From an uncultured Planctomycetales bacterium (GTDB lineage: Bacteria; Omnitrophota; Gorgyraeia; Zapsychrales; JBDRMG01), in the NCBI GenBank assembly GCA_964478715.1, contig CAYZIY010000002.1, positions 113,068-177,067 on the forward strand: DNA of 64,000 bases, given 5' to 3'. The position numbers were made by a program, and so were the translations under genes. How positions within the stretch are numbered: position 1 is the first letter of the stretch; every line of letters begins with the position of its first letter. The notes below the pieces were generated by a model. That model was given only the letters and a program-made list of their open reading frames with translations. It ran no database searches and was not told the DNA's origin. Of this stretch, positions 1,339 through 51,652 are shown in pieces.

Positions 1339-1354
1339 AGGAATTAATATCCCA

Positions 1355-1670
1355 TGAACAATAATATCAAGACATACGAGCCAAACAATGGTTGCTGAAG
1401 CCGCTGTTTTGGGGACACTGCCTATTAGGTTTAATAATTATGTTGGTAAATTGAGTTATCTGGAAGAACTGGAACATAAATACCATCTTACCTTTCGAAT
1501 CAAAACATCCGAGCAGGAGAAATTATTGGAAAACAATTGATGCTTTACTTGCTATGCCAAATCTTAAAGAGGAATGGATGAAACGGCGCGATCGGATGCT
1601 TAATAACATGGTTGATGTAGTGGATTTTATGGTGGAATATATCGAAAATTTGAGAATAGATAGGAGATAG
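1355..1670 (+). pseudogene. Degraded C-terminal remnant of a second DUF354 paralogue, broken by frameshifts and stops.
   Basis: Two frames translate to EAAVLGTLPIRFNNYVGKLSYLEELEHKYHLTFRIKTSEQEKLLENN and DALLAMPNLKEEWMKRRDRMLNNMVDVVDFMVEYIENL. These align with the C-terminus of the upstream gene (ECACLGVPSIYVNSQKLGYIDQERKYGLVFDI...NEWKQKRDEFVKSKIDVTKYI). There is no intact ORF. Confidence 0.5.
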
Positions 1671-1671
1671 G

Positions 1672-2775: not shown

Positions 2776-2797
2776 TTTAAGGCAGCTTCTGTAAGAT

Positions 2798-4030
2798 ATG
2801 AAAATACTTCATTTCACCCATTCATTTTTTCCAGACTATGGCGGCACAGCAACGCGACTATATAATTTATTGTCACAATCCGAACATGAACACCATCTGT
2901 ATATTCCACTGAAAGAATCCGATTCAATAAATGAGAAGCCCATCAAAGATGACCGACATGAAATGCTTGGCAATATTCGTGTCAGCCGGAAACCGATCGC
3001 TAAAAAGAAGAAACTCAAAGTACCTTATCTGTCAACACAGATAGACATCATGAGGAGTGCATCTGAGCTCGCTAACAGTGTTCAAGGTGACGGTTTTAAT
3101 ATAGTTCATGCGCATAATCCTTTAATTTTTGCACTTGCAGGCATGAAATATGCAAAGCGTAAGAATCTGCCGCTTATTTATGAAATCCATACTTTACTCA
3201 AATACAAATCAAGCAAAGGGAAATATATTATTTGTAGAATGTTTTATTCTGCGATTGAGCAATTATTACGTTGGCAGGAAGGTAGGGTGTGCCACAGCGC
3301 AAGTCGCGTTATCGTTCAGACAGAAGATTTAAAAAAAGAGATAGCCCGTATCTATGATTTGCCAATGACTAAGATTGTTGTTATTCCCATGGGTTTCGAT
3401 AGTGATGTATTTAATCCAGATCAATGGAGTAAGCAAGGAGAAGTTCTTAAATTGAAGTATGCGTGGAAAAATAAAATAATATTTTTCTATAACGGTTTTC
3501 TGCATAGCGAAAATGGCATTGATTTCTTTTTGAAAACCGTATTGAGATTACGCGATTCTTACAAAAATAAAATTAAAATAATCATAACTGGCAGGGGACC
3601 TTTGCAAAAAGAGATTGAAAAGATGGCTCAAGAGACTGAGCATCTAATAGAGTTCATCGGTTTAGTCGACCATCAACAGATTGCATCTTATTACGCTGCA
3701 TGCGATATTGTGGTTATTCCATGGAAAGGTTTGGATAGAAAGCAGTTTAATATACCAACAAAATTATTAGAAGCTATGTCTATGAGTAAAATTATCTTGG
3801 CAAGTAGACTGAGAGGGATAATGACCATATTGAAAGAAAATGAAAACGGATTTTTGTTTGAACCTGATAATGAGAATGATTTGATTGAAAAAATTGAGAA
3901 GATTGTTTGCGAAGATGAAGATCTTAATGAGATGAGAGATCGAGCTAAGGAAGCAGTTATCCATGAATATCCTTGGAATCTTTTTAGGATGAAATTGGAG
4001 AAATTATATACAGAAATCTCCAGACATTGA
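2798..4030 (+). CDS. Glycosyltransferase family 4 (GT-B, retaining).
   Basis: N-terminal KILHFTHSFFPDYGGTA. C-terminal GT4 signature region EAMSMSKIILASRLRG...ENGFLFEP. Confidence 0.85.
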   Translation: MKILHFTHSFFPDYGGTATRLYNLLSQSEHEHHLYIPLKESDSINEKPIKDDRHEMLGNIRVSRKPIAKKKKLKVPYLSTQIDIMRSASELANSVQGDGFNIVHAHNPLIFALAGMKYAKRKNLPLIYEIHTLLKYKSSKGKYIICRMFYSAIEQLLRWQEGRVCHSASRVIVQTEDLKKEIARIYDLPMTKIVVIPMGFDSDVFNPDQWSKQGEVLKLKYAWKNKIIFFYNGFLHSENGIDFFLKTVLRLRDSYKNKIKIIITGRGPLQKEIEKMAQETEHLIEFIGLVDHQQIASYYAACDIVVIPWKGLDRKQFNIPTKLLEAMSMSKIILASRLRGIMTILKENENGFLFEPDNENDLIEKIEKIVCEDEDLNEMRDRAKEAVIHEYPWNLFRMKLEKLYTEISRH

Positions 4031-4677
4031 CAAGGAGTAGTAACGTGAAGTTAAATAAAGTTCCCACGCTTAGAATTCATTCAGTTAATCGAATCAGTTT
4101 AGATATGCAATTAATTAAGCATCTTAAGAAGCTCAAGCCGGGAGTAGTTTTGGACGTTGGTTCGAGTGCCTCACCCTATAAAAAATTTATTCCTGCAACA
4201 AAATATCTTCGACTTGACATCAACAAGGAAAGTCATCCAGATATCTGTTGCGATGTCCATCAGATAGAGTGGGCATCAAAGTTTTTTAATACAATTATTG
4301 CTTCCGAAGTTCTTGAGCATCTAGCGAATCCTGCTGTAGCTATCGAAGAAATGAGGAGAGTATTAAAATCTGGCGGAATATGCATTCTGACCACACGGTT
4401 CATGTATCCGTATCATCCTTGTCCAAAAGATTATTATCGATTTACAAAAGATTCACTGCAGATATTGTTTAGTAAATTTAGCACAATACAGATAGTGCCA
4501 CATGGTAATCGTATCCAATTGCTGTGGCAGATTATAAACAACAGTGGCAATAAGAGCTGCGGGAAACTCCAGCGAATATTCAACATCTTTCTGAATATAT
4601 TCAATCCCATATTTGCAAGAATCAACTTCATCGATAAGGGTTATCCACTCGGTTTTATTGTTGTTGCACAAAAATAG
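4027..4677 (+). CDS. Class I SAM-dependent methyltransferase.
   Basis: Motif I VLDVGSSASPY. Methyltransf_11/23-like acidic loop ASEVLEHL. Start overlaps the upstream stop (ATGA-type coupling). Confidence 0.8.
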   Translation: MTRSSNVKLNKVPTLRIHSVNRISLDMQLIKHLKKLKPGVVLDVGSSASPYKKFIPATKYLRLDINKESHPDICCDVHQIEWASKFFNTIIASEVLEHLANPAVAIEEMRRVLKSGGICILTTRFMYPYHPCPKDYYRFTKDSLQILFSKFSTIQIVPHGNRIQLLWQIINNSGNKSCGKLQRIFNIFLNIFNPIFARINFIDKGYPLGFIVVAQK

Positions 4678-4701
4678 TAACTAACCTTTATAGGTATTGT
4701 A

Positions 4702-5562
4702 ATGATCAAGCGAAGAAAAAAAGGTATTTCTGTTCTCGTTCCAACACAAAACTCACAGAAGACAGTGAAGCTATGCATAGAGTCATTTCTCGAATTTGGT
4801 GATGAGATTATTGTTGTTGATAATGGATCTAGGGATGAAACTATTAATATTGTTACCACGATTGCACAGCAATGTGAGAAGATTAAATTTTTTAATGCCC
4901 CAGACCTAGTTGATCTGTATCAGAATCGGCAATATGCTTTTGAGCGTTCCCAATATAACTGGATTGCACGAATCGATAGCGATTACGTCGCCTATACATC
5001 GGGACCGCAGGACATAAAGGAATTGAGACAACTGATAATCAATGCGAGACCATCTATTCGACCGATCGCCTATGGCATTAAGCAAGTGAATCTATATCGT
5101 GATTATTGGCACACGGGAATCGAAAGAGAGCAAAGACACAACAATAGTGGGCCGCATGTAGCATCACCGGTTGTGAGTCTGCCAGCAAGGATTATTCAAT
5201 ATTTTCCAGGAATGAAGTTTGCTAGACTTGGACGTTGGGAAGGTGTCAGATTTCAGAGATTTCTACAACATAGACATTTGGACGAGCCCTATTGGTTTCA
5301 TTGTGAATTCAAGAGTGACCTTGACTATTTCTATCGGTCAGAAAGAACAAATTGGAGACAGCTAGGCGATTATCGGCGCTTTCCGACGCTGCGCTCTTAT
5401 ATTGAACACATTCTCCCGGATAAATACGGAACGAATAATATCGACGAAGCTTGTCGTAACTATATTGAAAAACATTTGAATCGTTTTCTAATGACTTATG
5501 AACCGTTAAGGTATTATTCTTATCCTGAAATAATAAAAGAGGAAATGGAGAAATGTACGTAG
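4702..5562 (+). CDS. Glycosyltransferase family 2.
   Basis: ISVLVPTQNSQKTVKLCIESFLEFGDEIIVVDNGSRDET matches the GT2 DXD/nucleotide-binding N-terminal region. Confidence 0.85.
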   Translation: MIKRRKKGISVLVPTQNSQKTVKLCIESFLEFGDEIIVVDNGSRDETINIVTTIAQQCEKIKFFNAPDLVDLYQNRQYAFERSQYNWIARIDSDYVAYTSGPQDIKELRQLIINARPSIRPIAYGIKQVNLYRDYWHTGIEREQRHNNSGPHVASPVVSLPARIIQYFPGMKFARLGRWEGVRFQRFLQHRHLDEPYWFHCEFKSDLDYFYRSERTNWRQLGDYRRFPTLRSYIEHILPDKYGTNNIDEACRNYIEKHLNRFLMTYEPLRYYSYPEIIKEEMEKCT

Positions 5563-5596
5563 TTGACTAGGTATTTTATAACTGAAAGAGTAATTT

Positions 5597-6382
5597 ATGG
5601 ATAGTAAAGAAAAGGCGGATCTATCGAGAACGTTACAAGAAAAGTGTTATGCGTTTCCTTATCATTATCTTGTGGAGTTTAGTCAGGAAAACTTAGATAG
5701 CTTCTCTCAGGTTAAAAATAATCCCACAGGATACAGATATGCGGCCTATCTTAAAAGAGTTCTCGATGCTGTCAGCAAAGAAAAGTTTAAGAGTGTGGCA
5801 GATGTTGGGTGCGGCGATGGGTTCTTTATCAAAATATTTTCAAAACAATTTACGAATAAACGAATTGTCGGAATAGATCTTTCCGAAAATGCGCTGATGT
5901 TTGCGCGCTTACTTAACGCAAATAATGCAGCTGAGTTTTTCAATTATAATATCTTGGAAAAGAGGCCTGACGAGAAATTTGATATTGTGACTTTAATCGA
6001 AGTGCTCGAGCATATTCCACCTGATCAGATTGACTTGTTTCTTGGTGCGATTTGCAAAATGTTGCAGGATGATGGGAAGTTAATTGTGACGGTTCCTTCG
6101 GTCAATTTATCCATTGCAAATATTCAAAGACATTTTCAACATTTTAATGAAGAGAAGCTAAGGAAAGCGTTATCTCAGCATTTTGACTGTATTGAGATTG
6201 AATATATCAATAAGCAAAATTACATATCGAAAATAATACATAAAATCTTTACAAACTCGCTTTTCATATTAAACCATAAACGTTTAGCCAGTGCCCTTTT
6301 TAGATATTATCTTAATAGGTTTCTGCACGCCGACAAACATAATGGCCTAAGGCTTTTTGCCTTATGCAGAATAAATAGGTAA
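5597..6382 (+). CDS. Class I SAM-dependent methyltransferase.
   Basis: VADVGCGDGFFIKIF (motif I) and IEVLEHIPPD. Confidence 0.8.
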   Translation: MDSKEKADLSRTLQEKCYAFPYHYLVEFSQENLDSFSQVKNNPTGYRYAAYLKRVLDAVSKEKFKSVADVGCGDGFFIKIFSKQFTNKRIVGIDLSENALMFARLLNANNAAEFFNYNILEKRPDEKFDIVTLIEVLEHIPPDQIDLFLGAICKMLQDDGKLIVTVPSVNLSIANIQRHFQHFNEEKLRKALSQHFDCIEIEYINKQNYISKIIHKIFTNSLFILNHKRLASALFRYYLNRFLHADKHNGLRLFALCRINR

Positions 6383-6390
6383 ATAAACTA

Positions 6391-7863
6391 ATGCCGAATA
6401 ACGAAACAACATTATATCAAAAGTTTCACGAAACTATTAAACATGGGTTAATTTATGGGTTTGGCTCCATTATCCAAAGAATCGCAGGAGTTTTCTTAAT
6501 TCCTCTTTACACTGCCTGTTTTTCGACATCAGAGTATGGAGTTTTTGGACTATTGATGGCAACAAGTCAAATATTTGGAGTATTTATTTTGGCAGGGATG
6601 AGCACAGCATTCATGAGATCTTTCTATGATTATCAAGACAGGGCTGAAAAAAGGATGGTTGCATCCACTGCCATGTCTGTAATTTTTGTAAATAGTTTAG
6701 GAATTGGACTTCTGGGGTTATTATTTTCTAAACAAATTGCAATGTTCTTATTTCAAGATGCTCAGTATGGCATCTATATAGTTATGGTGGTGTTCATGGC
6801 GATTTTTTACCAGTTAAATTCTATACCGCTCGCAATTTTTCGCGTAAAAAAGAAATCCATTTTGTATATTTCATGCCAAATTACATTTTTCTTATTTCAA
6901 ATTGGAGCCGTGGTTTACTTTGTTGCGATAAGACAAATGGGTATTTTTGGAGCTATATATGGGTATGTTTTAGCGAGTCTGGCCTTGTTTGTCATTTTAA
7001 TAATTGTTACGCGGAAAGATATCACTTTTCGATTCTCTTTTTATGAAGCTCGAAAGATGTTACATTATGGAGTTCCTTTATTGTTGACAGGTTTAAGTGC
7101 TTTTCTTTTTAATTATATCGATCGGTATATGCTCGCCTTTTATGCCAGTTTTCATGAAGTTGGGCTTTACAACTTAGGTTATCAATTTGGCATGATTATG
7201 ATGGCTATTCTTGTAACACCTATGAAATTTATTTGGGGACCAATGTTTCTTTCTGTCAAGGACCACAGTAATGCCCATGCATTTTATGCGAGAATGCTTA
7301 CATACTTAACATGTGTTGGGTCATTGCTTTTTTTGATGTTGGCTGTTCTCTCAAAAGACGTTATACAGCTTTTTGCTAAACAGAGTTATTGGGATGCCTA
7401 TCATGTCGTTCCCGTTATTGCACTTTCTTACTTAATATGGAGTCAGCGAAGCGTGCTAGATGTAGCTATTCATTTAAAACGAAAAACAAAAATATCTGCA
7501 TTCTATTTTATTGCGGGAGCGATGATCAATATTGTTTTAAATTTAGCACTTATTCCAAGGTACCAAATGATGGGCGCAGCTTACGCTACATTAATTGCTT
7601 TTGTCGCGATGGTAATCGCTTCCTATGTTATTAATCAAAGATTAATTAAGATTGATTATGAGTGGAATAGAATTCTTAAGATATATTCGACTGCGATATT
7701 AATTTATTTTGTCACACCGTTAATTAACATAAGCAATGTATATCTTTCTCTTTTAACAAAGTCGGGATTCATTATTGTATGCTTTCCGTTGCTTCTTATG
7801 ATGCTTGGGTTTTATACATCGATAGAATTAGAAAAAATAAAAAAGATTTTAAGAATCACATAG
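6391..7863 (+). CDS. wzx: Polysaccharide/O-unit flippase, MOP superfamily (Wzx-like).
   Basis: 490 aa with about 12-14 hydrophobic helices. It sits inside the glycosyltransferase cluster. Confidence 0.75.
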   Translation: MPNNETTLYQKFHETIKHGLIYGFGSIIQRIAGVFLIPLYTACFSTSEYGVFGLLMATSQIFGVFILAGMSTAFMRSFYDYQDRAEKRMVASTAMSVIFVNSLGIGLLGLLFSKQIAMFLFQDAQYGIYIVMVVFMAIFYQLNSIPLAIFRVKKKSILYISCQITFFLFQIGAVVYFVAIRQMGIFGAIYGYVLASLALFVILIIVTRKDITFRFSFYEARKMLHYGVPLLLTGLSAFLFNYIDRYMLAFYASFHEVGLYNLGYQFGMIMMAILVTPMKFIWGPMFLSVKDHSNAHAFYARMLTYLTCVGSLLFLMLAVLSKDVIQLFAKQSYWDAYHVVPVIALSYLIWSQRSVLDVAIHLKRKTKISAFYFIAGAMINIVLNLALIPRYQMMGAAYATLIAFVAMVIASYVINQRLIKIDYEWNRILKIYSTAILIYFVTPLINISNVYLSLLTKSGFIIVCFPLLLMMLGFYTSIELEKIKKILRIT

Positions 7864-8003
7864 GATGTCTAAAAGTGATCTTCCCCCGAAAAAGTGGACA
7901 CTTAGAAGAGTTGGTGATAGCATGACAACCGGCTCAGAAGGAGGTGTCCGATGGGAGACAATGGCAAGAAAAAGTGTAATGCTCCCCATTAGTCAAGGGG
8001 AAT

Positions 8004-8786
8004 TTAAGTTAGAACCGGCTCTTTGATTTTAGGTTGATATTGTTCATAGCATTGTCTCGGCGTCATGTTATTCAGGCTTTGGTGCGGGAAGTCCGTATTG
8101 TAATCATAAATCCATTTGCCCAAAGCGACTTCGAATTCAAACGGGCTTTGCCAGTCATAGCACCAGACGATGCCTTCTTTGATGGTGCGCATGACCCGTT
8201 CGGTATCCGAATTGCCCTTAGGGTTAGACCAGGTCGTAAAGATCTGTTTGATGCCGAGAATCGAGCAGTTCATCATAAAGCGCTGACTCGTTGGCTGGCA
8301 CCCGTTATCAGAGATTAAGAATAATTGTTCTTTCATATTTTCGCGAATACCGTTGGGGAACCGGTTATTGACGGCCATCTGAATAGCGTCAAGCCAGTCT
8401 TCGGTTTTGGATTGCAAGCTAAGAGAATATCCGACGACTTCTTTGGTGTACCAGTCAAGGACGATGCACAGATACAGCCAGCCCCAGGGACCGATCTTGA
8501 TCTTTGTCATGTCTATGTCCCAGAAGTGATTGGGGTGCTGGGCCTGAGGTTTGGGACGGATGGGGCCGCGCCTGGCTTTAAGCCGTGTTTCTTTGGTCAC
8601 AAGCATATTCTGCTCTTTTAAAAGACGATAGATACGCTTCTTGTTGACAGCGATGCCTTGGCGGTACTTAAGATACGACCATATTCTCCGATAGCCCCAA
8701 AAGGGATGGTCGGTCTTAATCTCTTTGATTTGATTCAAAAGAACCCGATTACGTTCTATAACAGATTTTGATTTTGACCGTTTCAT
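8004..8786 (-). CDS. IS3-family transposase OrfB (DDE integrase core, rve).
   Basis: WDIDMTKIKIGPWGWLYLCIVLDWYTKEVVGY...SDNGCQPTS...WSNPKGNSDTERVMRTIKEG matches the DDE integrase core. It overlaps orfA by 4 nt in the -1 frame. Confidence 0.85.
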   Translation of the reverse strand: MKRSKSKSVIERNRVLLNQIKEIKTDHPFWGYRRIWSYLKYRQGIAVNKKRIYRLLKEQNMLVTKETRLKARRGPIRPKPQAQHPNHFWDIDMTKIKIGPWGWLYLCIVLDWYTKEVVGYSLSLQSKTEDWLDAIQMAVNNRFPNGIRENMKEQLFLISDNGCQPTSQRFMMNCSILGIKQIFTTWSNPKGNSDTERVMRTIKEGIVWCYDWQSPFEFEVALGKWIYDYNTDFPHQSLNNMTPRQCYEQYQPKIKEPVLT

Positions 8787-9058
8787 AGCTCGTATTCGCT
8801 TTTTTTTAACTCGATCGTGAGGTCACCGATGATGTTCTTGAGTTTGCGGACCTCTTGCTCTAAATGCTGTTCTTTCTTGGTCACGTTCTTGACTTCGAAG
8901 GCCTGATGGCCGTGCTTCAAGAGATTATCGCGCCATTTATAATATTGGGTCTGGGCGATCTGATACTTGGCGCAGAGTTTGCTGATCTCAATCTGGCCGG
9001 ATAAGCCTTCAAGAACGATTTGAAGTTTCTGCTGGCTTGACCATTTACGGTTTTTCAT
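8783..9058 (-). CDS. IS3-family transposase OrfA (HTH DNA-binding).
   Basis: MKNRKWSSQQKLQIVLEGL...KLCAKYQIAQTQYYKWRD is a typical IS3 OrfA HTH/leucine zipper. It ends at the A8 slippery run. Confidence 0.85.
   Translation of the reverse strand: MKNRKWSSQQKLQIVLEGLSGQIEISKLCAKYQIAQTQYYKWRDNLLKHGHQAFEVKNVTKKEQHLEQEVRKLKNIIGDLTIELKKSEYEL
8799..8810 (-). promoter_or_regulatory. Programmed -1 ribosomal frameshift site (A AAA AAA) joining orfA and orfB.
   Basis: The minus strand reads TTAAAAAAAAGC immediately before the orfA stop. Sliding -1 puts the ribosome into the orfB frame (…KKKRIRAMKRSK…). Confidence 0.6.
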
Positions 9059-9127
9059 CGAATAAGCCTCCTTTTTGGTTGGAGCCTTATTCTAACTTAA
9101 AAACCTCAATCTGTTAATGGGGAGCAG

Positions 9128-10046
9128 TATAAAAGAGACGGGGAACGGTTCCGATTCATAGACGAAAACGTTTCTGTCTTTCCGCTCGGGAAGATGTGCC
9201 GGATTTTGGAAGTATCAAGGAGCGGTTATTACGCGTGGTAGAAGCGACCGAAGAGTCAACGCAGGATCAATAACGAAACATTGCTCATTGAGATACAACG
9301 TGTGTTCATGGAGAACGACGCGAATTTTGGGAGCCCGAGGATCTGGAACGAGTTAAATAACGTCCAAGGCATCGGGTGTTCCAGGAACCGCGTGGCCCGA
9401 CTGATGCGTGAGGCGGGGCTGGCAGCGATCCATAAACGCAAGTTTAAAGTTACAACGAACTCGAAGCACAACTGGCCGGTGGCGCCCAATTTATTGGAAC
9501 GCAATTTCAACATTGATGAGCCCAATAAAATTTGGGTGACGGATATCAGTTATATCTGGACATGGGAAGGCTGGCTGTATTTGGCGTTTGTGTTAGACTT
9601 GTTCTCACGAGGCGTAGTTGGACTGACCATGTCGAACAGAATGACGGATGAATTAACGCAGAATGTGCTAAATCAGGCCATTGGCCGACGGAATCCTGAG
9701 TCTGGGCTGATTCATCATTCGGACCGTGGCAGCCAATACGCCAGCGGCGATTATCAGGCGCTGCTTAAAAAGCACAAAATCACACCGAGCATGAGCCGTA
9801 AAGGCGATTGCTGGGATAACGCTGTTGCTGAGAGTTTTTTACACACGTTAAAAGTTGAGAAAGTAAACCGTTATAGGTTTAAAACGAGGGATGAAGCAAA
9901 AAGAGAAATCTTTCGTTATATCGAGATGTATTACAACCGGAAAAGAACGCATTCATCCCTCGGGTATCTTAGCCCGTTTGAGTACGAAAAGCGTTCGGTT
10001 CCATCTTTATTAACCGTCCACTGATCTGGGGAAGGTCAACAGTAAA
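9128..10046 (+). mobile_element. 5'-truncated second IS3-family element (orfB only). Its orfA/left end was replaced by the nested IS at 7980-9127.
   Basis: The region 9140-9280 encodes the typical OrfB N-terminal segment (…KMCRILEVSRSGYYAW*KRPKSQRR…) with an in-frame TAG at 9239-9241. No orfA or left inverted repeat is present. The right boundary is uncertain. Confidence 0.55.
9281..10024 (+). CDS. IS3-family transposase OrfB (integrase core) of the truncated copy. Probably non-functional.
   Basis: IWVTDISYIWTWEGWLYLAFVLDLFSRGVVG...HSDRGSQYAS...CWDNAVAESF matches the DDE integrase. Upstream in-frame stop. No cognate orfA. Confidence 0.75.
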   Translation: MLIEIQRVFMENDANFGSPRIWNELNNVQGIGCSRNRVARLMREAGLAAIHKRKFKVTTNSKHNWPVAPNLLERNFNIDEPNKIWVTDISYIWTWEGWLYLAFVLDLFSRGVVGLTMSNRMTDELTQNVLNQAIGRRNPESGLIHHSDRGSQYASGDYQALLKKHKITPSMSRKGDCWDNAVAESFLHTLKVEKVNRYRFKTRDEAKREIFRYIEMYYNRKRTHSSLGYLSPFEYEKRSVPSLLTVH

Positions 10047-11261
10047 ATGAATCTTGAAAGCACTCAAGTTCTTTATATTGCATATGGGGGGATCATGCAA
10101 AATGTTTTTGATTCTCAAGTATTACAGTATGTGAAGTGCCTGAGGGAACGCAATGTCGGAATTACATTAATTGTTTTTGATCAATTTAATAAGATTTTCT
10201 TAAAAGAATATTTCCAAAAGAGAAAGAAGATCAAGGAAGATCTCGGCGAGCATGTTTATTGTATGTTTAGATTACCTCTCATGGGACGTTTCAGCGTTCA
10301 GATTGATGCGTTTAGACTACATTTATATTTTAAGAAACATTTTCAATCTAAATACAAGAAGATTATATTTCATTGTCGTAATTTATGGGCATCTTATCTT
10401 GCTTTGAAAAGTATAAAAAACAAGGAGAATATATTTCACGTTTTAGCGGATATCAGAGGAGATCAAATAGCAGAATATCGATGCTATTACCCAGATTCGC
10501 TACTCACCAGATGGAAAATAAAAGAACTTCAATTAGTGGGGCATTACACTTGCAAGCACGTAACAAAATTGTTTTGTGTTTCCTCAGTTTTGGCAGAAAC
10601 TTTGGAGAAAAAATATTGTATCAATACGGATGATATTATTGTGGTGCCGACATGCGTCGATCATAGAATATATTCATCTAACTATGATTCAAGAAAGGCT
10701 CTGAGAAAGAAACTTGGCATTGCCGATAAGTTTGTTATTGTTTACAACGGAGGGCTGCAGGGGTGGCAAAACTTCGAAGGCCTCATCCAGATAGCGACAA
10801 AAATCAGTCAGATAGATAGCACCACATTTTTCTTTGTTTTAACAAAAGATGTTTCTACAGCAAAAACATATCTTGAAAAACATTCTTTTCCAAAAGAACA
10901 GTATAAGGTTATGAATTTGCAATATGGTAAAATGGCGAAATTTCTATCGTGCGGCGATCTCGGGCTGCTTGTTAGAAAGCAGAATGATGTGAATAAAGTT
11001 GCAAGCCCAACAAAATTTGCCGAATATCTCGCATGCGGAATGCCAGTATTGGTGAGTCCGAATATCGGTGATACGGAATCAATCATCAAGAATGAAAATG
11101 TTGGTTTCGTTTTAGGAAATGATTTGCAGTTAGCAGCCTTACTGAAGAGGATAAAAGATGATCGTGAAGCCCTTGCAGCTGATTGCATGAAGGTCGCAAT
11201 GAAATATTATGACTTAGAGACCTATCTTGATCAAATTCAGAATATTTATGATTCAATATAG
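10047..11261 (+). CDS. Glycosyltransferase family 4.
   Basis: N-terminal VLYIAYGG. C-terminal KFAEYLACGMPVLVSPNIGDTESIIKNENVGFVL (EX7E-like GT4 motif). Confidence 0.8.
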   Translation: MNLESTQVLYIAYGGIMQNVFDSQVLQYVKCLRERNVGITLIVFDQFNKIFLKEYFQKRKKIKEDLGEHVYCMFRLPLMGRFSVQIDAFRLHLYFKKHFQSKYKKIIFHCRNLWASYLALKSIKNKENIFHVLADIRGDQIAEYRCYYPDSLLTRWKIKELQLVGHYTCKHVTKLFCVSSVLAETLEKKYCINTDDIIVVPTCVDHRIYSSNYDSRKALRKKLGIADKFVIVYNGGLQGWQNFEGLIQIATKISQIDSTTFFFVLTKDVSTAKTYLEKHSFPKEQYKVMNLQYGKMAKFLSCGDLGLLVRKQNDVNKVASPTKFAEYLACGMPVLVSPNIGDTESIIKNENVGFVLGNDLQLAALLKRIKDDREALAADCMKVAMKYYDLETYLDQIQNIYDSI

Positions 11262-11310
11262 TGTAAATGAAATCGATATCTCATTTTTAAATTAAATTCT
11301 AAAAAATGGC

Positions 11311-12411
11311 ATGCCCATGAAAGGAATCGAATCACAGAAATATAGAAAAGTTAGATTAGGAGTATGCCTACGACTTCACAACAAGCAGGCGGCTGAGCAT
11401 CTTAAGCCACTTCTTGACCATCCTTCTGTTACCAAGCTTCACATTGTCCGCCATGAGCCGATCAAGGGCCTGGCGTCATCAAAGGTTCAATATTACATTA
11501 TTAATAATAAAATGAAATGTCGTCGATTTTTTCTCATGTACCAAAAATGCAAGGAATTAGTCAGGAATAATCAAGTTGACGCATTTGTTTCCTTTAACCC
11601 AATTCCGTATGGATGTATTTCAGCCCTAGCTTCAAGATCAAAGAATATCCCTTTTCATTTTGGATTCATTGGTAGCGATTGGTACGGAAATTCGCAGTCA
11701 TTATTCTGGAGAATATTCAAATCGCTACTTAAAAAAGCTAGCTTTATAACAGTGACCGGAAAAAGTATGCTTAACCAAACAATCAGCATGGGTTTAAATC
11801 CAGAAAATATCGCTGTTTTACCGCATTCTATTGATCTTGAGCGATTTCAGATTTGTGATCAAGGAGTTAAGAAATATAATTTTATTTTCGTTGGTCAACT
11901 AATTAAACGTAAGCGTGTCGATCTCATCCTGCAAGCTTTGAGCATGATTAGAAAAGAATATCAGAATACAAAATTGTGCATTGTTGGGGATGGTCCATTA
12001 CGAAAGGCTTTAGAACAACAAGTGCGGCGGCTTGCGTTAACCGATGCAGTCGACTTTATTGGGCAAACGGATTCCGTACAAAACTATCTTAATCAGGCTA
12101 AGATTTTAGTCATGGCATCTGATATGGAAGGATTTCCATTTGCTATAGTTGAAGCGCTTTGTTCTGGGCTCGTACCAGTAAGCACAAGAACAGGAACCAT
12201 CGATGATGTGCTGATTGATGGCAAGAGTGGATTTATCGTTGAGTGCAGGGATGTCAATGGTTTGGCGAATAGTATGGTTCGTTTGCTTAAGGATCACAAT
12301 TTATATCAACAAATGCAGGAGGACATTTTCAAGCTGAGAAAAGACTATACTTATGAGAAGGCAACAGACATTTGGGATCAGTGGTTAAGTAAGCTAGAAA
12401 AAACAAGCTAG
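11311..12411 (+). CDS. Glycosyltransferase family 4.
   Basis: GFPFAIVEALCSGLVPVSTRTGTIDDVLIDGKSGFIV is a canonical GT4 C-terminal motif. Confidence 0.85.
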   Translation: MPMKGIESQKYRKVRLGVCLRLHNKQAAEHLKPLLDHPSVTKLHIVRHEPIKGLASSKVQYYIINNKMKCRRFFLMYQKCKELVRNNQVDAFVSFNPIPYGCISALASRSKNIPFHFGFIGSDWYGNSQSLFWRIFKSLLKKASFITVTGKSMLNQTISMGLNPENIAVLPHSIDLERFQICDQGVKKYNFIFVGQLIKRKRVDLILQALSMIRKEYQNTKLCIVGDGPLRKALEQQVRRLALTDAVDFIGQTDSVQNYLNQAKILVMASDMEGFPFAIVEALCSGLVPVSTRTGTIDDVLIDGKSGFIVECRDVNGLANSMVRLLKDHNLYQQMQEDIFKLRKDYTYEKATDIWDQWLSKLEKTS

Positions 12412-43671: not shown

Positions 43672-44544
43672 ATGAATCAGAGCTCATCCTTGCAGGTCGG
43701 AAGAAACAGAACATTCGCATTGGTCATTCCTCGTTTCGAGGATATTTTCCACTCGTTTTATGCCGGTGAGATTATCAAAGGTGTTGGTTTTGCCGCCAGC
43801 CGGATAAAGGTGGATATCTTAATGCACATTACCGATCGTTTTGACCATCACGACTGGATGGAGTCTCCGCTTTTGGATAAGCGCTATATAGACGGATTGA
43901 TATTTGCCGATATCAATAATGATATCAATACGCTCAAAAAAGTTCTTCAAAAAGACATTCCTTATATGGTTTTAAACAATACGTTCGAAGAACCCATAAA
44001 CAGTATATCCGTTAATAATAAGCGGGCTGCCTATGATGTGGTGGAATATCTCATTCGACTCGGTCATAAGAAAATTGCCACGGTGGCTGGTGATCTTTCC
44101 ACTCAGGCCGGAAAATACCGTCTGGATGGTTATAAGGAAGCTTTGACAAAATACAAGATTCCGCTTAATGAAGAATATTTAACCAGCGGGGATTTTTTAA
44201 GAACACCATCCCGGCAGGCAGCGGAGAAACTGCTTAATTTAAAAAATCGTCCCACAGCCATATTTGCCGCTTCAGATGTGATGGCCTTAGAATGTATTGA
44301 TCAGGCCCGGCTGCAAAGCATTTCTGTTCCAGGAGAACTGTCTGTAATCGGCTTTGATGATAATCCGATCAGTTCCTACTGCGCTGTGCCTTTAACAACA
44401 GTTTCTCAGCCGCTTTCGGAAATGGGGCGCTTAGGCGTTGAGCATTTGAATCAGATTATCAATCGGACGGTCAAGGTTCCTGTCAAGGTTCTTTTGCGCA
44501 CCAAATTCGTTAACCGCAAATCTGCCGCGCCTCAGAAATCATAA
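43672..44544 (+). CDS. LacI/PurR-type periplasmic-binding-fold sugar-binding domain protein lacking the N-terminal HTH.
   Basis: It begins directly in the ligand-binding core ([26 protein letters not shown]...). The C-terminus has the typical …IGFDD…TTV.QP… motif. The start is only 13 nt after the sigma-factor stop, leaving no room for an HTH. Confidence 0.7.
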
Positions 44545-45648: not shown

Positions 45649-47091
45649 ATGAGTCGTAGAATTTTACTTACACTTGCAATGGTCGCGCTCATTGCCATGC
45701 CAGCTCATGCTGCGGTACAGTCCGTGAAGGTCAGCGGCAGCATCGATTCCACATGGCTCGTTCGCGATCAGTTTGATCTCGGTAATGAGACGGTAGGAAT
45801 ATCTTCAGAATTTTACCAAAATCTGCTCATTACCCAGGCCATTCTTCGCATTGATGCTGATCTGACGGACAACGTATCAGCTGTCATCGAGCTCATCAAT
45901 GAAAGAGAATGGGGTGATGAGAGCAATACGGCTGAAGCCGAATCAGATGATGACGAAACAAACAGCACGGTTGATGTTAACTTAGCTTACATCACTTTAA
46001 GAGAAATGCTTTACTCTCCTTTAACTGTGGTGGTTGGTCGTCAGCCGCTTCGTTATGGGAACGGACTCATCATCGGCGATCCGGACACAAACAACGCATC
46101 AACCGGAAGATTAAGAGTTGTGGCCGATGATCTTTCCAAGCGAAAATCATTTGATGCCGTTAAAGCGATCTTTGATTATGATCCGTTGACTATCGATATT
46201 TTCGCTGCCAAAGTGGATGCGAACCAAGTAACGGGTGCCAGCGGCGAAACTACAACTAGTGAAGACGACATTGATCTTTACGGTATTGTCGGTAACTGGA
46301 AGCTTCAGGATGAAAGGAATACCGAGGTAGAAGCATATTTCTTTGCTGAAATTAACGCTGATGCAGAAGAAAATAAAACTGGATCCAAAGCTTCTACTAT
46401 TTATGTTCCTGGTTTAAGGGTTGCGTCTAATCCAATCGAAAATCTTTATACTAGCGCTGAAATTGCCTGGCAGAGTGGAAATTATAATGGCGTTGCTGCT
46501 AGTTCTGGCGACAATCAGCCAAGAAGCGCCATGGCTATTCAGACCATCGGTACCTATGCCATTCCGATCGAGGCCATCGAGCAGTACAGCCCGATTATTT
46601 CCGGTTCCTATACCTGGGTGACCGGTGACAGCAATCCTACAGATACGCAATATGCAAACCAAGCTTCAGAAAACAAGTGGACCGCATGGGATCCGATGTA
46701 TGAAGATCAGGCTGGCGGCAAGATCTATAACTCTATTATGGATTTGACCAACTGCCATATCTACATCACCTCTATCCAGGCCACGCCGTTAGAAGACATT
46801 ACGGCAAAGCTCTCATGGACAGGGCTTTATCTGGACAAAGAGTTTGATGAATCAGCTGGCACAAACACATGGTCAAGAACATTGCCAGACAGCACAACAG
46901 CATTTAACTACAACGTGGCCGTTAATGAAAATCATCTTGGTAATGAGCTTGATTTGGATCTGATGTATGATTATACAGAAGATGTCCAGATCGGTTTTAG
47001 CGCTGGATGGTTCTTCCCTGGCGATGTTTTCACGGATGAAAATCATGACACCGCCAAACAATTCTTAACCAACGTGAATGTTCGTTTCTAA
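45649..47091 (+). CDS. Secreted outer-membrane beta-barrel (porin-like) protein.
   Basis: Signal peptide MSRRILLTLAMVALIAMPAHA. Alternating amphipathic beta-strand pattern. C-terminal …NVNVRF with terminal Phe. Confidence 0.6.
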   Translation: MSRRILLTLAMVALIAMPAHAAVQSVKVSGSIDSTWLVRDQFDLGNETVGISSEFYQNLLITQAILRIDADLTDNVSAVIELINEREWGDESNTAEAESDDDETNSTVDVNLAYITLREMLYSPLTVVVGRQPLRYGNGLIIGDPDTNNASTGRLRVVADDLSKRKSFDAVKAIFDYDPLTIDIFAAKVDANQVTGASGETTTSEDDIDLYGIVGNWKLQDERNTEVEAYFFAEINADAEENKTGSKASTIYVPGLRVASNPIENLYTSAEIAWQSGNYNGVAASSGDNQPRSAMAIQTIGTYAIPIEAIEQYSPIISGSYTWVTGDSNPTDTQYANQASENKWTAWDPMYEDQAGGKIYNSIMDLTNCHIYITSIQATPLEDITAKLSWTGLYLDKEFDESAGTNTWSRTLPDSTTAFNYNVAVNENHLGNELDLDLMYDYTEDVQIGFSAGWFFPGDVFTDENHDTAKQFLTNVNVRF

Positions 47092-47120
47092 ATCTGCGTT
47101 GAATTAAGAGAGAATAACAG

Positions 47121-47160
47121 GCGCCCCGCACCCGATGGTGCGGGGCGCTTTTCTATTTTA
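47121..47160 (+). terminator. Rho-independent terminator after the OMP gene.
   Basis: GCGCCCCGCACC-CGAT-GGTGCGGGGCGC followed by TTTTCTATTTT. Confidence 0.8.
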
Positions 47161-47304
47161 TTTTCTCGACGAAGAAAAAGGCCTGATTTCCCTAATCCCA
47201 CCGAATAATTTGCTAAAAAAAATAAAATACTGATTTACAAACGATATTCGTCTGTTAAGATAAATTTATTAATAACAATAATGAGTTAAACTGAAAAAGA
47301 AAGA

Positions 47305-47883
47305 ATGACTAAAAACGAAATATACGAACATCTCGCTCGCGTTTATATCGGAAAAACAGGAGGTTCTCAAGAAGAAGACCCCAACAAAAAGCGCAAGAAA
47401 GTCTGGAGTAAAATAGCCTTGATTTGTGTTTTGATTGTAGGCTGCTTCTACGTGTTGACAGCGCTTTTTTCCAGACGCCCTGTTTATTCGGAAAACAAAA
47501 TCAGTTTTGCCTTAAGCAACAGCGCGATCCGCATTCCTTACAATCTTAATGAGCCTTATCCACAGATAAAGAATTTTGCGATCCCAATACCCAAAGTGGA
47601 TGCCTCGAAATATTCTCAGCTGAGCTTTTCGATCCGCGGGCTAGAAGAGGGATTCCCGGGTATCGTCAAAGTCAAAATTACCAACAAACGCAATGAAACT
47701 TCTTTTCATTTTGTCGAAGATGTCAATCTCAAGTGGAAAAGAGTCGCTATTCCCCTCAATGAATTTGACACGATTTCCGACTGGACAAGTCTTTCGGATC
47801 TATCCTTTGTGATTGAAGCCTGGAACGCACAAAAGAAAGAAGGGATTGTGCTGATTGATGATGTGTGCTTCAGCAGTTCATAA
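47305..47883 (+). CDS. Hypothetical single-pass membrane protein with a C-terminal beta-rich (CBM-like?) extracytoplasmic domain.
   Basis: Short cytoplasmic N-terminus, TM helix IALICVLIVGCFYVLTALF, then a roughly 130-aa beta-rich domain. First gene of an apparent operon with the ParA-CBM48 gene. Confidence 0.5.
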   Translation: MTKNEIYEHLARVYIGKTGGSQEEDPNKKRKKVWSKIALICVLIVGCFYVLTALFSRRPVYSENKISFALSNSAIRIPYNLNEPYPQIKNFAIPIPKVDASKYSQLSFSIRGLEEGFPGIVKVKITNKRNETSFHFVEDVNLKWKRVAIPLNEFDTISDWTSLSDLSFVIEAWNAQKKEGIVLIDDVCFSSS

Positions 47884-47918
47884 ACGATTCGTCGTTGGTG
47901 AAAAAGGAGGATTATTAT

Positions 47919-49004
47919 ATGCTTGTAATTTCGATAGCTAATCAAAAAGGCGGATGCGGAAAAACGACCACCGCGATCAATCTGGCCTCATCGCTCTCAA
48001 CCAATGATCGCCGGGTGCTTTTGATTGATCTAGATCCACAGGCACACGCCTCTTTGGGGCTTAATATCGAATCACAGGACAGCATTTATAACGTGATTTC
48101 CAAGCTGTCTCCGCGAAGGATGAAAATCAAAGATATTATCCGCCCTGTCAGAGAAAAATTTGATTTGGTCCCTTCCAACATTCTGGTAGGAACACTCGAG
48201 CAAGAACTGACCGATGAAATTGGCCGGGAAATTAAGCTCACTGAAATTATCGAAACGATCAAAGACAATTATGACTACATCATCATTGACTGTCCGCCTT
48301 CATTGGGTTTTCTTTCGGTAAATGCGATCAGGGCCAGTCAGCAGGTCATCGTTCCTGTAGAACCATCGCGTTTCTCCATGCAGGGTGTGGATCGCCTGAT
48401 GGATATTGTCCATTTGATCCGTGACCGTCTCGGCCATCAAGTGGATTGCAGGGTTTTGATCACGATGTTCGACTCCCGTCTTCGGCATTGTTTTGTCATG
48501 AAAGACCGGATCAATGAGAAATTTCGGGACATGAGTTTTCAATCTATAATTCACATCAATGTCAAACTTAAGGAATCGGTTTTTAACGGGAAGACAGTCA
48601 GCGACTATGATAAATACTGCCGTGGATCTAAAGACTACTACAGTCTGGCCAAGGAATTGATGACATTAAACAACGATACTAAGATCAATGTCCGGCCCTT
48701 ATCGAACAAAATGAAAAAGCTGATCAAGGAAAAGACGAAAGAATTACGTGATACGGTTTTTGTGCTGGAAGCTCCCCAAGCGCGCTCTGTGTATGTCACC
48801 GGTTCTTTCAACGATTGGTCGTTGGATGAAACATTCCGAATGAAGAAAGATAACGGCAAATGGGTGCTGAGAGCTCCCTTGCGAAACGGCGTGCATCGTT
48901 ATCGGTTTATTATCGATGGAAGATGGCAAGAAGATCCCTCTAATTCGAGAATCGAAAAAAATCCTTTTGGAGATTTAAATAGCATTATCGAGGTTAAAGG
49001 ATGA
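47919..49004 (+). CDS. ParA/Soj-type deviant Walker-A ATPase fused to a C-terminal CBM48/AMPK-beta glycogen-binding domain.
   Basis: Deviant Walker A ANQKGGCGKTTTAINLA and ParA-like Walker B IIIDCPPSLG. C-terminal VYVTGSFNDWSLDETFRMKKDNGKWVLRAPLRNGVHRYRFIIDGRWQEDP matches the AMPK1_CBM/CBM48 pattern. Strong RBS AAGGAGG 7 nt before ATG 47919, so the ORF-track start at 47865 is probably an over-extension. Confidence 0.8.
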   Translation: MLVISIANQKGGCGKTTTAINLASSLSTNDRRVLLIDLDPQAHASLGLNIESQDSIYNVISKLSPRRMKIKDIIRPVREKFDLVPSNILVGTLEQELTDEIGREIKLTEIIETIKDNYDYIIIDCPPSLGFLSVNAIRASQQVIVPVEPSRFSMQGVDRLMDIVHLIRDRLGHQVDCRVLITMFDSRLRHCFVMKDRINEKFRDMSFQSIIHINVKLKESVFNGKTVSDYDKYCRGSKDYYSLAKELMTLNNDTKINVRPLSNKMKKLIKEKTKELRDTVFVLEAPQARSVYVTGSFNDWSLDETFRMKKDNGKWVLRAPLRNGVHRYRFIIDGRWQEDPSNSRIEKNPFGDLNSIIEVKG

Positions 49005-49330
49005 CAGCAAATAGGAAATCTAAACCAGAAACCATCAAGGAAGGTAAAATCTTTGCCCTGTTGGCTTATCTGTCGATTTTATGTATCATTCCTCTGGTCC
49101 TTAAAAAAGAAAATGACTTTGTTCTTTCCCATGGGAAGCAAGGGCTTGTTTTATTTATCGGTGAAGTGATTATTTTTATCATTAGCATGGTGCCGTTTCT
49201 CTCCTGGATGCTCAAAACCGGGCTGTTTATCCTTTTTGTCCTTTCCCTGTGGGGCATGATTGAAGTTCTTAAGGGCCGCTACATCAAGCTTCCCATTGTT
49301 GCCGAAATCGCCGAGAAAATAACACTTTAA
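49001..49330 (+). CDS. Small membrane protein (DUF4870-like).
   Basis: KIFALLAYLSILCIIPLV...HGKQGLVL with three TM helices. ATGA-coupled to the ParA stop. Confidence 0.55.
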   Translation: MTANRKSKPETIKEGKIFALLAYLSILCIIPLVLKKENDFVLSHGKQGLVLFIGEVIIFIISMVPFLSWMLKTGLFILFVLSLWGMIEVLKGRYIKLPIVAEIAEKITL

Positions 49331-49351
49331 TTTTCAGGATGGCTACCCAAC

Positions 49352-49978
49352 ATGATTTTCGGACGGCTGATTTCCTCCATTAAAAAACACTTCAAAAAAA
49401 CCCGCAAGAAAACCAGGAAGAAAAAGACTTCCCCGAAGATTAAAAGAAAAAGATTCGTTAAAAAAAAGACGGTTCAGGGCAAACGCAGAACGCGGAAATC
49501 CTCCAAACCTCCAGAAACCGCCGGCCAAAGAAAATCCACAACGAAAAAGAAAAAGCAGACCACCTCTTTATCAGGAAGATCAAAGAAAATTAAAAAGAGG
49601 AAATCATCAAATTCAAGAAAAAAGCAGAGTATCAATAATAAGGGAGCTTTAAAACGAAAAATTACAAAGAAAAAGAAAATTTCCGGAGTTGCTAAAGAAC
49701 CGCAGAGAAAACTTGCGATTTCAGGTGAAAAGCTAATTGGGGAAATTACTCATTATTTTTCGAAAATAAAAGTTTGCGTGATCAAAATGACGGCTGGCAC
49801 GATTGCCCTGAACGATCCATTGCATATCAAGGGAAGCTCAACGGATTTCAGGCAAAAAGTTGGCTCGCTTCAAATTGAAAACTCTGATGTCCGGATTGCC
49901 AAAAAAGAACAGCTGGTCGGCATGAAAGTCAAGCATAAAGTCCGCCAAGGAGATCAGGTCTTTAAGATCGTGTCTTGA
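49352..49978 (+). CDS. Lys/Arg-rich histone-H1-like N-terminal region (about 115 aa) fused to an EF-Tu-domain-2-like beta-barrel.
   Basis: The N-terminus is 45-50% K/R. The C-terminus IGEITHYFSKIKVCVIKMTAGTIALNDPLHIKGSSTDFRQKVGSLQIENSDVRIAKKEQLVGMKVKHKVRQGDQVFKI resembles the stand-alone 'translation elongation factor-like' barrel proteins. Confidence 0.5.
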   Translation: MIFGRLISSIKKHFKKTRKKTRKKKTSPKIKRKRFVKKKTVQGKRRTRKSSKPPETAGQRKSTTKKKKQTTSLSGRSKKIKKRKSSNSRKKQSINNKGALKRKITKKKKISGVAKEPQRKLAISGEKLIGEITHYFSKIKVCVIKMTAGTIALNDPLHIKGSSTDFRQKVGSLQIENSDVRIAKKEQLVGMKVKHKVRQGDQVFKIVS

Positions 49979-50301: not shown

Positions 50302-50754
50302 ATGACTAAGAAAAATGCTTCGCTTCAGAAATTAAATTCACAAGAAAAACAGTTAATGAAACGTTATCTAGTATGGTGTTACAAAACCACCAGGGAAGAG
50401 CTTGATCTAACGGATCGAAAATTCACCCAGCTGGTGGTTGATCGAGAGATCGATCGCTATCTGCAAAGAGGAAAAGCAAAATTGGCCTCTTTAACAGATA
50501 GGGAAGCGCTCAACCAACACCTCAAGGATTTGAGAATCTATATTGAAGAAAAGCAAAAGAGGGCATGGGAATCTAAATTTCAGGATCCCGCGCAAGGACT
50601 TCTGAAGCCGAAATATGCCTATTTGATATTGCGACTGGAAGCCATCGAAAATACTATCGTTCATTTTTTTAGCAAAAGAGTGCTTAAAGAAATTCAGAGA
50701 CTTTACGAGCAGGAAATGACCGGGCGAATTCTCAAGGCTCGAGAGCATTCATAA
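50302..50754 (+). CDS. Hypothetical protein (150 aa, alpha-helical).
   Basis: ORF with no recognisable motif. Sits between the K-rich gene and the GGDEF gene. Confidence 0.45.
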   Translation: MTKKNASLQKLNSQEKQLMKRYLVWCYKTTREELDLTDRKFTQLVVDREIDRYLQRGKAKLASLTDREALNQHLKDLRIYIEEKQKRAWESKFQDPAQGLLKPKYAYLILRLEAIENTIVHFFSKRVLKEIQRLYEQEMTGRILKAREHS

Positions 50755-50761
50755 ATAGACT

Positions 50762-51652
50762 ATGGCCAATCAGGAAGTTCTCAATCAAAAAGACGGATTA
50801 ACCGGTTATCATACCAAGCAGGGATTATTCGAATATCTCTCTTCGAAGACGCAGTCTGTTTATAACCGCCCCAAGAATCTGGCTGTCATTCTTCTGGATC
50901 TGGATAAATTCAAGCCAATCAATGATACATACGGACATCTTATCGGTGATGATGCGTTGAGGCATTTTTGCATGGCTATTAATAAGGCTTTAAAGGGTAA
51001 ACATTTTGTCGCACGCTACGGTGGCGATGAGTTTGTTATCGTTTGCGATGACGATGCCAGCGGCAAGGAGAGTTTAGAAATTGCCAAACGCGTTAAGACG
51101 ATTCTTAAACGCGAAAAGTTTTTTACGCCTAAGGGGCATATCCGCATTCGTTCTTCGATTGGTATCTCGCATTATCCTGAAGATGCCAAAACTGGCCGCG
51201 GACTTCTCGATAGGGCAGATCAGGCGCTTTATTATGCCAAGCAGCACGGGCGGGATCAGGCTGTCAGCACTCGCAGTCTGCGAAAGTATTCAGCAAAAAA
51301 TAGGTTTTTTAGTCTGGCAAAACTGGCATTGATTTTTGGAATTGTGGCTATTATTTTTCTATCTTATTATCGGACCAATACACTGCGCGGGATTTCGGCA
51401 TATTTTAAAAACCTCTTTCAGCAGACGTCTTTTACAAGACATCAGAAAAAAAGGGGATACAATTTTGCAACACTGAGGTTAAAAGACGGCAAGAAAATAT
51501 CCGGATGGATCATAAGTGAAGACGAGGAAAAAATAACTATGACTATGACAAAACCGGAGTTTCATTTGAATCCCTTACGCATGAAGGTCGCTGCAGAACC
51601 CCTTATCGTACCGAAATCTCAAATCATCGCATCGATAACCGTTTCTAAATAG
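50762..51652 (+). CDS. Diguanylate cyclase (GGDEF). The N-terminal GGDEF domain is followed by a TM helix and a roughly 90-aa C-terminal beta-rich domain.
   Basis: RYGGDEF active-site motif. No obvious I-site RxxD. TM IFGIVAIIFLSYY at residues ~180-200. The C-terminal domain is unassigned. Confidence 0.85.
   Translation: MANQEVLNQKDGLTGYHTKQGLFEYLSSKTQSVYNRPKNLAVILLDLDKFKPINDTYGHLIGDDALRHFCMAINKALKGKHFVARYGGDEFVIVCDDDASGKESLEIAKRVKTILKREKFFTPKGHIRIRSSIGISHYPEDAKTGRGLLDRADQALYYAKQHGRDQAVSTRSLRKYSAKNRFFSLAKLALIFGIVAIIFLSYYRTNTLRGISAYFKNLFQQTSFTRHQKKRGYNFATLRLKDGKKISGWIISEDEEKITMTMTKPEFHLNPLRMKVAAEPLIVPKSQIIASITVSK

Follow-up and report, generated by a model that had tools for sequence, protein, structure and literature searches.

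A ParA/Soj-type ATPase fused to an AMPK-beta-type CBM48 module: a candidate glycogen-positioning ATPase in Omnitrophota and other bacterial lineages

ATPases of the ParA/MinD family position chromosomes, plasmids, carboxysomes, chemoreceptor arrays, flagella and division sites in bacteria. PhaM, which tethers polyhydroxybutyrate (PHB) granules to the nucleoid in Ralstonia and has a lysine-rich DNA-binding tail, is not an ATPase system. Glycogen is the most widespread bacterial carbon store and, to the best of our knowledge, no ParA/MinD positioning system is known for it, the spacing and inheritance of glycogen granules being essentially unstudied. Here we analyse a stretch of 64,000 nucleotides (nt), hereafter the window, from a genome assigned to Omnitrophota (assembly GCA_964478715.1, contig CAYZIY010000002.1, positions 113,068 to 177,067), a placement with which the record names of close homologues agree; the window carries a four-gene operon, g1 to g4. 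The second gene, g2, encodes a ParA/Soj-type ATPase fused to a C-terminal CBM48, a carbohydrate-binding module (CBM) of the type found in the glycogen-binding domain of AMPK beta.

Residues 3-249 of g2 are a Soj-type ParA whose best solved relative is the chromosomal ParA of Myxococcus xanthus (8RAY, E=1e-47), and both AAA_31 (E=3e-54, 184 bits) and CbiA (8e-19, 68 bits) match above their Pfam cut-offs. The deviant Walker A (KGGCGKTT) and Walker B motifs that a model had read from the DNA letters in an earlier description of the window (the original prediction) are both present. In an alignment of 73 full-length ParA-CBM48 homologues, on which all the conservation counts for g2 are based, the signature lysine K10, the Walker A K15, the A' D39 and the Walker B D124 are invariant (73/73). 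The same is true of C13 in the P-loop (KGGCGKT), a position at which canonical ParA/Soj proteins have a valine (KGGVGKT), and this cysteine (Walker A at 47946-47966) is a family signature of ParA-CBM48. In Bacillus subtilis Soj, R189 and R218 mediate non-specific DNA binding (PMC3778016); the equivalent of the first, R187, is Arg in 72 homologues, and that of the second, K216, is K or R in 62. Six residues of M. xanthus ParA form the pocket for the ParB peptide (PMC12462528), and in g2 five of them are still hydrophobic, the equivalent of V116 being a conserved Gln. The sequence evidence points to g2 as a probably active, dimerising cytoplasmic ParA/Soj-type ATPase that would be regulated by a partner peptide, and nucleoid DNA binding is likely.

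Two narrower assignments of g2 were considered and rejected. Although the Pfam model CBP_BcsQ scores above its cut-off (37 vs 21.3 bits), the NCBIfam BcsQ model TIGR03371 reaches only 67.7 bits against a cut-off of 157.85 and there are no bcs genes nearby. Membership of the BY-kinases was discarded because the score is far below the equivalog cut-off, with no Tyr cluster and no wz context. No NCBIfam model is above cut-off for any of g1 to g4.

The ATPase domain is followed by a linker whose length varies between 12 and 105 amino acids (aa) among the homologues. In core Omnitrophota it contains, just ahead of the CBM48, a short motif, (P)LSxKMxELVKE, that might form a short helix. Phycisphaerae homologues have far longer linkers ending in FYGV. 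The C-terminal domain had been predicted to be a CBM48 from the pattern VYVTGSFNDW...HRYRFIIDGRW and this is what we find, as AMPK1_CBM (E=1.5e-15, 57.6 bits, cut-off 26.8) and CBM_48 (E=1.3e-5, 25.9 bits, cut-off 22.4) both score above the Pfam cut-offs, the solved glycogen-binding domain of AMPK beta1 (1z0n) matches with E=6e-12, and the top 15 PDB matches are all AMPK beta. The sugar contacts of rat AMPK beta1 we take to be W100, K126, W133, L146 and N150 (Polekhina et al. 2005). At these positions g2 has W300, R329, W336, F350 and N354, that is, three identical residues (W100, W133 and N150) and two conservative replacements (K126 by R and L146 by F). W300 and W336 are each Trp in 72 homologues, and the other three positions are occupied by R/K/Q, F/Y and N/D, respectively. 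The g2 CBM48 is likely to bind an alpha-glucan, and its closest relatives outside ParA proteins are tandem CBM48 arrays and GH13 amylases/pullulanases. With E<=1e-3, the query had matches in 8189 clusters (50% identity); metagenomic proteins of 3-18 tandem AMPK-type CBM48 copies are numerous (proteins P0213-P0362), and a common form has ~480 aa and four CBM48 copies, with no further Pfam domain of a carbohydrate-active or catalytic kind.

The ParA-CBM48 fusion is real, and about nine bacterial lineages have it. PF16561 is present in all of the best 120 of 8000 protein database matches, and in a genome scan with one genome per species 76 of the 80 loci returned align through query residue 356 or beyond, that is, through the CBM48, the other four being cut short. 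Homologues in core Omnitrophota are 48-67% identical to g2, and those at 35-45% come, according to the record labels, from Planctomycetota/Phycisphaerae, Desulfobacterota, Myxococcota, Rokubacteria, Eisenbacteria, Margulisbacteria, Acidobacteria and Spirochaetes. A fusion created by misassembly was rejected, the same architecture being present in more than 100 independent assemblies. Public records name these proteins 'AAA family ATPase' or 'chromosome partitioning protein'. The architecture had been presented as undescribed and, in fact, no paper on it emerged from a literature search (ParA with CBM48, AMPK1_CBM or glycogen), looking up terms in two papers on Omnitrophota gave nothing either, and it has no curated family; however, it is not rare but widespread in databases. 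ParA-CBM48 is a variant of the ParA/MinD positioning ATPases, neither unique to this window nor a categorically new system.

The proposed link to alpha-glucan metabolism is supported by the conserved sugar-binding residues, by the CBM relatives in amylases and pullulanases, and by a glycoside hydrolase gene in the operon of a sister clade. In this Omnitrophota clade (49-55% identity), a GH57 gene (Pfam E=2e-61) lies upstream of g1 on the same strand in all 23 loci, at a distance of 13-292 nt (13-145 nt in 21 of them). The closest solved structure to this GH57 is an amylopullulanase (E~1e-88; PMC12106739), and its sequence starts directly with MLNLAFIFHMHQPYY, with no signal peptide. Outside Omnitrophota, a locus from a Thermodesulfobacteriota metagenome-assembled genome (L061) encodes, 2 kb from ParA-CBM48, a stand-alone 101-aa CBM48 (L061:6337-6642, minus strand) that is 37% identical to the ParA-fused module and adjoins a GH57 gene (L061:6676-8256, minus strand). 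For Omnitrophota loci a Pfam census covered 119 cluster representatives, and for non-Omnitrophota loci it covered 150 neighbours. These censuses showed no enrichment of Glyco_transf_5, NTP_transferase, Phosphorylase or Alpha-amylase, GH57 being the sole family of this kind to appear; beyond GH57 in L043 and L061 and the stand-alone CBM48 of the latter, no glycogen-metabolism family is enriched near ParA-CBM48 in either set of loci.

Regarding the partner of the ATPase, no ParB-like ORF (GERR motif) adjoins ParA-CBM48 in 73 loci, the genes directly beside it being g1, g3, g4 or others whose products are not ParB; nor is ParB one of the 25 Pfam families seen most often in the neighbour censuses, and no ParB-like motif was found in the window ORFs. 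Membership of a canonical ParABS system was rejected for lack of an adjacent ParB. The best-conserved putative partner of g2 in Omnitrophota is g1, not the Lys-rich g4. The original prediction had described a membrane protein with an extracytoplasmic beta-rich, CBM-like domain, and this agrees with g1, in which a conserved cytoplasmic N-terminal helix (aa 3-17) and a transmembrane helix (aa ~26-56) precede a probable CBM11/30/8-like jelly roll (aa 67-190) that is predicted to be periplasmic. This gene precedes g2 in 40/40 core Omnitrophota loci, and a g1 homologue (hhalign probability 98%) is also found upstream in nine loci of a deeper clade in which the other neighbours are unrelated. This persistence amid different neighbours argues that g1 and g2 are functionally coupled and not merely syntenic. 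In the window, g1, g3 and g4 all lack the LG(R/K)GL-type ParA-binding peptide; g1 has a different, invariant N-terminal helix, which is the likeliest candidate for the element that binds g2 in Omnitrophota. Genes for PilZ-domain proteins are recurrent near the deep-clade loci.

In other phyla the partner would be a soluble protein encoded downstream. In 13 non-Omnitrophota loci the next gene after g2 encodes a protein that starts with K-LGRGLEDVSHLFLS, which we take to resemble the LG(R/K)GLxALL ParA-binding motif of ParB. The existence and the role of the LG(R/K)GL-type motif in ParB are documented (PMC12462528). These loci include L041, L053, L056, L061, L062, L064, L066, L073, L076, L078, L080 and L081, as well as L041:9725-11608. 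None of these partners is a ParB, and some of them have a degenerate CbiA/ParA-like domain; for one partner family, c12, a profile search of PDB sequences returned nothing.

The two remaining genes are less tightly associated with g2. The g3 product scores 18.8 bits against DUF4870 (PF09685), below the gathering cut-off of 25, but 10 of the 24 members of its family match this model at E<=0.01 (best 5.5e-5) and weak precomputed matches exist in homologues too; g3 follows g2 in 24/40 core Omnitrophota loci. The N-terminal 125 aa of g4, a region whose length varies among homologues, contain 53 K/R and 2 D/E, and the C-terminal ~83 aa match the fold of an EF-Tu domain II-like (translation-protein) beta-barrel, so that the predicted fusion of a polybasic tail to such a barrel is borne out. 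A role of g4 as an adaptor comparable to McdB or PhaM, also put forward in the original prediction, is possible but more poorly supported than one for g1, as g4 is conserved in core Omnitrophota only (33/40 loci) and g1 in all 40 and in the deep clade. The coupling of g3 and g4 to g2 is the weaker one because both are missing from the deep clade and the core synteny runs well past the operon.

An active dimerising ATPase, nucleoid binding, alpha-glucan binding and regulation by a partner peptide would be combined most simply in a ParA that tethers granules. We therefore propose, tentatively and with slightly less than even confidence, that g2 could be a ParA which is bound to the nucleoid and there tethers glycogen granules or distributes them. 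The ATP-bound sandwich dimer of g2 would sit on nucleoid DNA via its conserved basic residues and would present two CBM48 modules on flexible tethers, gripping glycogen or another alpha-glucan, and storage-polysaccharide granules would thereby be tethered to and spread over the nucleoid. Hydrolysis of ATP would be triggered by g1 in Omnitrophota or, elsewhere, by the ParB-mimicking protein with LGRGLEDVSHLFLS. In this scheme g3 and g4 would be lineage-specific accessories, the polybasic tail of g4 binding a polyanion, most simply DNA. The broader proposal is that the ParA-CBM48 proteins of several phyla together form a class of positioning ATPase that has gone unrecognised and that acts on polysaccharide storage granules, either as cargo or as working surface. 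This class would have two new types of partner, in Omnitrophota a transmembrane protein whose periplasmic domain is CBM-like and elsewhere soluble proteins that carry a peptide mimicking that of ParB; the broader proposal is possible, but we lean somewhat against it.

Several points weigh against granule tethering. The main difficulty seems to be g1 itself, as a membrane-anchored partner with a periplasmic domain is not predicted by a pure nucleoid-granule model. In classical systems the adaptor, and not ParA, binds the cargo, and we know of no precedent for a ParA that binds cargo directly. The co-occurrence with glgA, glgB, glgC and glgP that had been anticipated failed to appear, none of these genes being found within ~6 kb in either locus set, and a tblastn search found no GH57 in the window. 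The neighbourhoods outside Omnitrophota are heterogeneous and, within Omnitrophota, gene order is syntenic far past the operon (PPDK, sigma-70, Apt, porin), so that part of the gene linkage could be inherited synteny. Finally, Omnitrophota cells are reported to be ultra-small (PMC10066038), and granule positioning seems less pressing in such cells.

It is also conceivable, although in our opinion unlikely, that glycogen is a regulator or a sink instead of a cargo, with the CBM48 reporting glycogen load to the ATPase as in AMPK and the real job of ParA (chromosome segregation, division-site placement or positioning of a membrane complex) being tuned to carbon reserves. In favour of this, the CBM is of the AMPK-beta subtype and not of the enzyme-N-terminal one, as seen in the Pfam scores and PDB matches above, and the ATPase domain is nearest to chromosomal ParA, with the DNA-binding residues and the peptide pocket kept. 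Furthermore, GidA/MnmG, which is often encoded near chromosomal par operons, is found near two non-Omnitrophota loci. However, neither ParB nor another known target is encoded nearby, the linkage of GH57 to the operon favours a physical association with glucan over sensing, and the long flexible linker fits tethering better than allosteric coupling.

By analogy with BcsQ or split Wzc-type systems, g2 might instead organise a machine of the cell envelope, with the g1 helix recruiting the ATPase as a membrane adaptor and g1, the ATPase and the porin placing or regulating a complex for polysaccharide uptake or export, while the CBM48 would hold the cytoplasmic end of an alpha-glucan chain. The predicted periplasmic CBM-like jelly roll of the invariant partner g1, the conserved synteny of the Alginate_exp-family outer-membrane barrel, the above-threshold CBP_BcsQ match and the translational coupling of g3, a small membrane protein, would all fit this explanation. 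Nevertheless, we consider it improbable: the operon has no glycosyltransferase, synthase or transporter, a strong terminator parts the porin from g1 in this window, and the NCBIfam BcsQ model scores far below its cut-off; moreover, in other phyla neither g1 nor the porin accompanies the homologues, which have the soluble partners with the ParB-like peptide instead, and the sister-clade GH57 has no signal peptide. Least probable, and in our opinion quite unlikely, is that g2 is an ordinary partition ParA whose E-set domain is decorative and serves only for protein-protein interaction or dimerisation amid phylum-wide synteny, as the extended synteny of the surrounding housekeeping genes and the public name 'chromosome partitioning protein' might suggest, since pure protein-protein use would not need sugar-contact residues conserved over about nine lineages, no ParB is adjacent, g1 stays paired with g2 in the deep clade, where the other neighbours differ, a whole clade has GH57 precisely inserted in the operon, and the Walker A Cys is a family signature unlike the canonical KGGVGKT.

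The operon itself consists, as had been predicted, of four co-oriented ORFs at 47305-49978. We find in addition a putative terminator upstream, which marks its 5' boundary, and promoter-like matches of its own (Table 1). The terminator and the promoter-like sites at 47234-47282 together argue for g1 to g4 as a transcription unit separate from the porin gene, which in 28 Omnitrophota loci is syntenic with it. The start of g2 is not the GTG at 47865 originally proposed but the ATG at 47919, which lies 8 nt behind AAGGAGG and corresponds to the Met at which the homologues begin. ATGA overlaps had been described between the genes; there is a single one, between the g2 stop and the g3 start, whereas g1 and g2 are 35 nt apart and g3 and g4 are 21 nt apart.

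Table 1. Coordinates of the operon features and of the upstream porin gene in the window.
Feature	Position	Strand	Basis
Outer-membrane beta-barrel, Alginate_exp family (porin; context)	45649..47091	+	Pfam E=1.4e-17
Predicted intrinsic terminator after upstream porin gene	47119..47150	+	14-bp stem, 11 GC pairs, then T-run
Two overlapping sigma-70-like promoter matches upstream of g1	47234..47282	+	9/12 consensus matches each; consensus match alone
g1, 192-aa bitopic membrane protein	47305..47883	+	N-terminal helix, transmembrane helix, probable CBM11-like beta-jelly-roll
g2 ATPase domain, aa 1-250, Soj/ParA-type deviant Walker A P-loop ATPase	47919..48668	+	AAA_31, 8RAY, motif conservation
g2 flexible linker	48669..48740	+	Alignment of homologues
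g2 C-terminal CBM48, AMPK-beta glycogen-binding-domain type, aa 275-361	48741..49004	+	AMPK1_CBM, 1z0n, Trp conservation
g3, 109-aa small membrane protein, probable divergent DUF4870 member	49001..49330	+	Pfam similarity, family members
g4, Lys/Arg-rich N-terminal tail and translation-factor domain-II-like beta-barrel	49352..49978	+	Composition, fold match

The rest of the window consists of housekeeping genes and a polysaccharide-biosynthesis cluster; no glycogen genes are found among these remaining genes, and no second ParA was found in the window. The cluster (1-12411) encodes DUF354, a UDP-GlcNAc 2-epimerase, GT4/GT2 glycosyltransferases, methyltransferases and a Wzx-type flippase, and it is broken by two IS3-type transposase ORFs (8004-8786, minus strand, and 9281-10024, plus strand), where the GC content rises from ~0.35 to 0.46. 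At 43672-44544, a gene for a 290-aa protein with a LacI-family sugar-binding fold (Peripla_BP_3/1) and no Pfam DNA-binding-domain match at E<=1e-5 occupies the same position (PPDK, sigma-70, gene, Apt) in two other Omnitrophota genomes. Downstream of the operon, a conserved 150-aa protein without family (50302-50754) is found at this place in eight Omnitrophota loci, and in the window it is followed by a GGDEF diguanylate cyclase (50762-51652) whose C-terminal ~130 aa have no Pfam match.

If granule tethering by ParA-CBM48 were true, this would be the first active system to tether, space or partition glycogen in bacteria and also the first ParA in which the ATPase, and not an adaptor, holds the cargo, which would test the generality of the diffusion-ratchet model. 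The fusion of a glucan-binding module to the motor gives a direct handle on glycogen positioning, as the conserved catalytic, DNA-binding and sugar-binding residues can be mutated, and some homologues belong to lineages with cultivable relatives (Myxococcota, Desulfobacterota and Planctomycetota).

Compared with the systems already described, g2 is closest in its ATPase domain (aa 3-249) to chromosomal ParA/Soj proteins (M. xanthus ParA 8RAY and the Soj proteins of T. thermophilus and H. pylori, E=1e-47 to 1e-36). Common to g2 and these proteins are the deviant Walker A and its signature lysine, the A' and B motifs, the arginine for non-specific DNA binding and the hydrophobic pocket for a partner peptide. 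g2 differs from them in the C-terminal CBM48 on a flexible linker, the invariant KGGCGKT Cys and the Gln at the V116 equivalent, and in that no adjacent ParB or parS operon was found in the 73 loci. The AMPK beta glycogen-binding domain is the best structural-database match to aa 275-360, but in g2 the module is bacterial and C-terminal and is carried by a ParA ATPase instead of the AMPK scaffold. Like PhaM, g4 has a lysine-rich tail and would fit the concept of a tether between storage granule and nucleoid; however, the two are unrelated in sequence, the folded part of g4 is a barrel like that of translation factors, and g4 is found in core Omnitrophota only. BcsQ, the cellulose synthase organiser, is, like g2, a ParA/MinD-family ATPase tied to polysaccharide biology and membrane partners, but it has no CBM, and the g2 locus has neither bcsA nor bcsB. 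McdA/McdB (carboxysome positioning), PpfA, ParC and PomZ likewise pair an orphan ParA-type ATPase with a small non-ParB partner encoded beside it, and the putative partners of g2 resemble those of McdA/McdB-type systems in having either a conserved short peptide at the N-terminus or a disordered region that is very basic, McdA (6NOO) being also a PDB match to g2 (E=4e-14). Unlike in McdA/McdB, the putative cargo-binding domain is on the ATPase itself, the presumed cargo is a polysaccharide granule and the Omnitrophota partner is a transmembrane protein, and the likeness between the two systems is one of functional analogy only.

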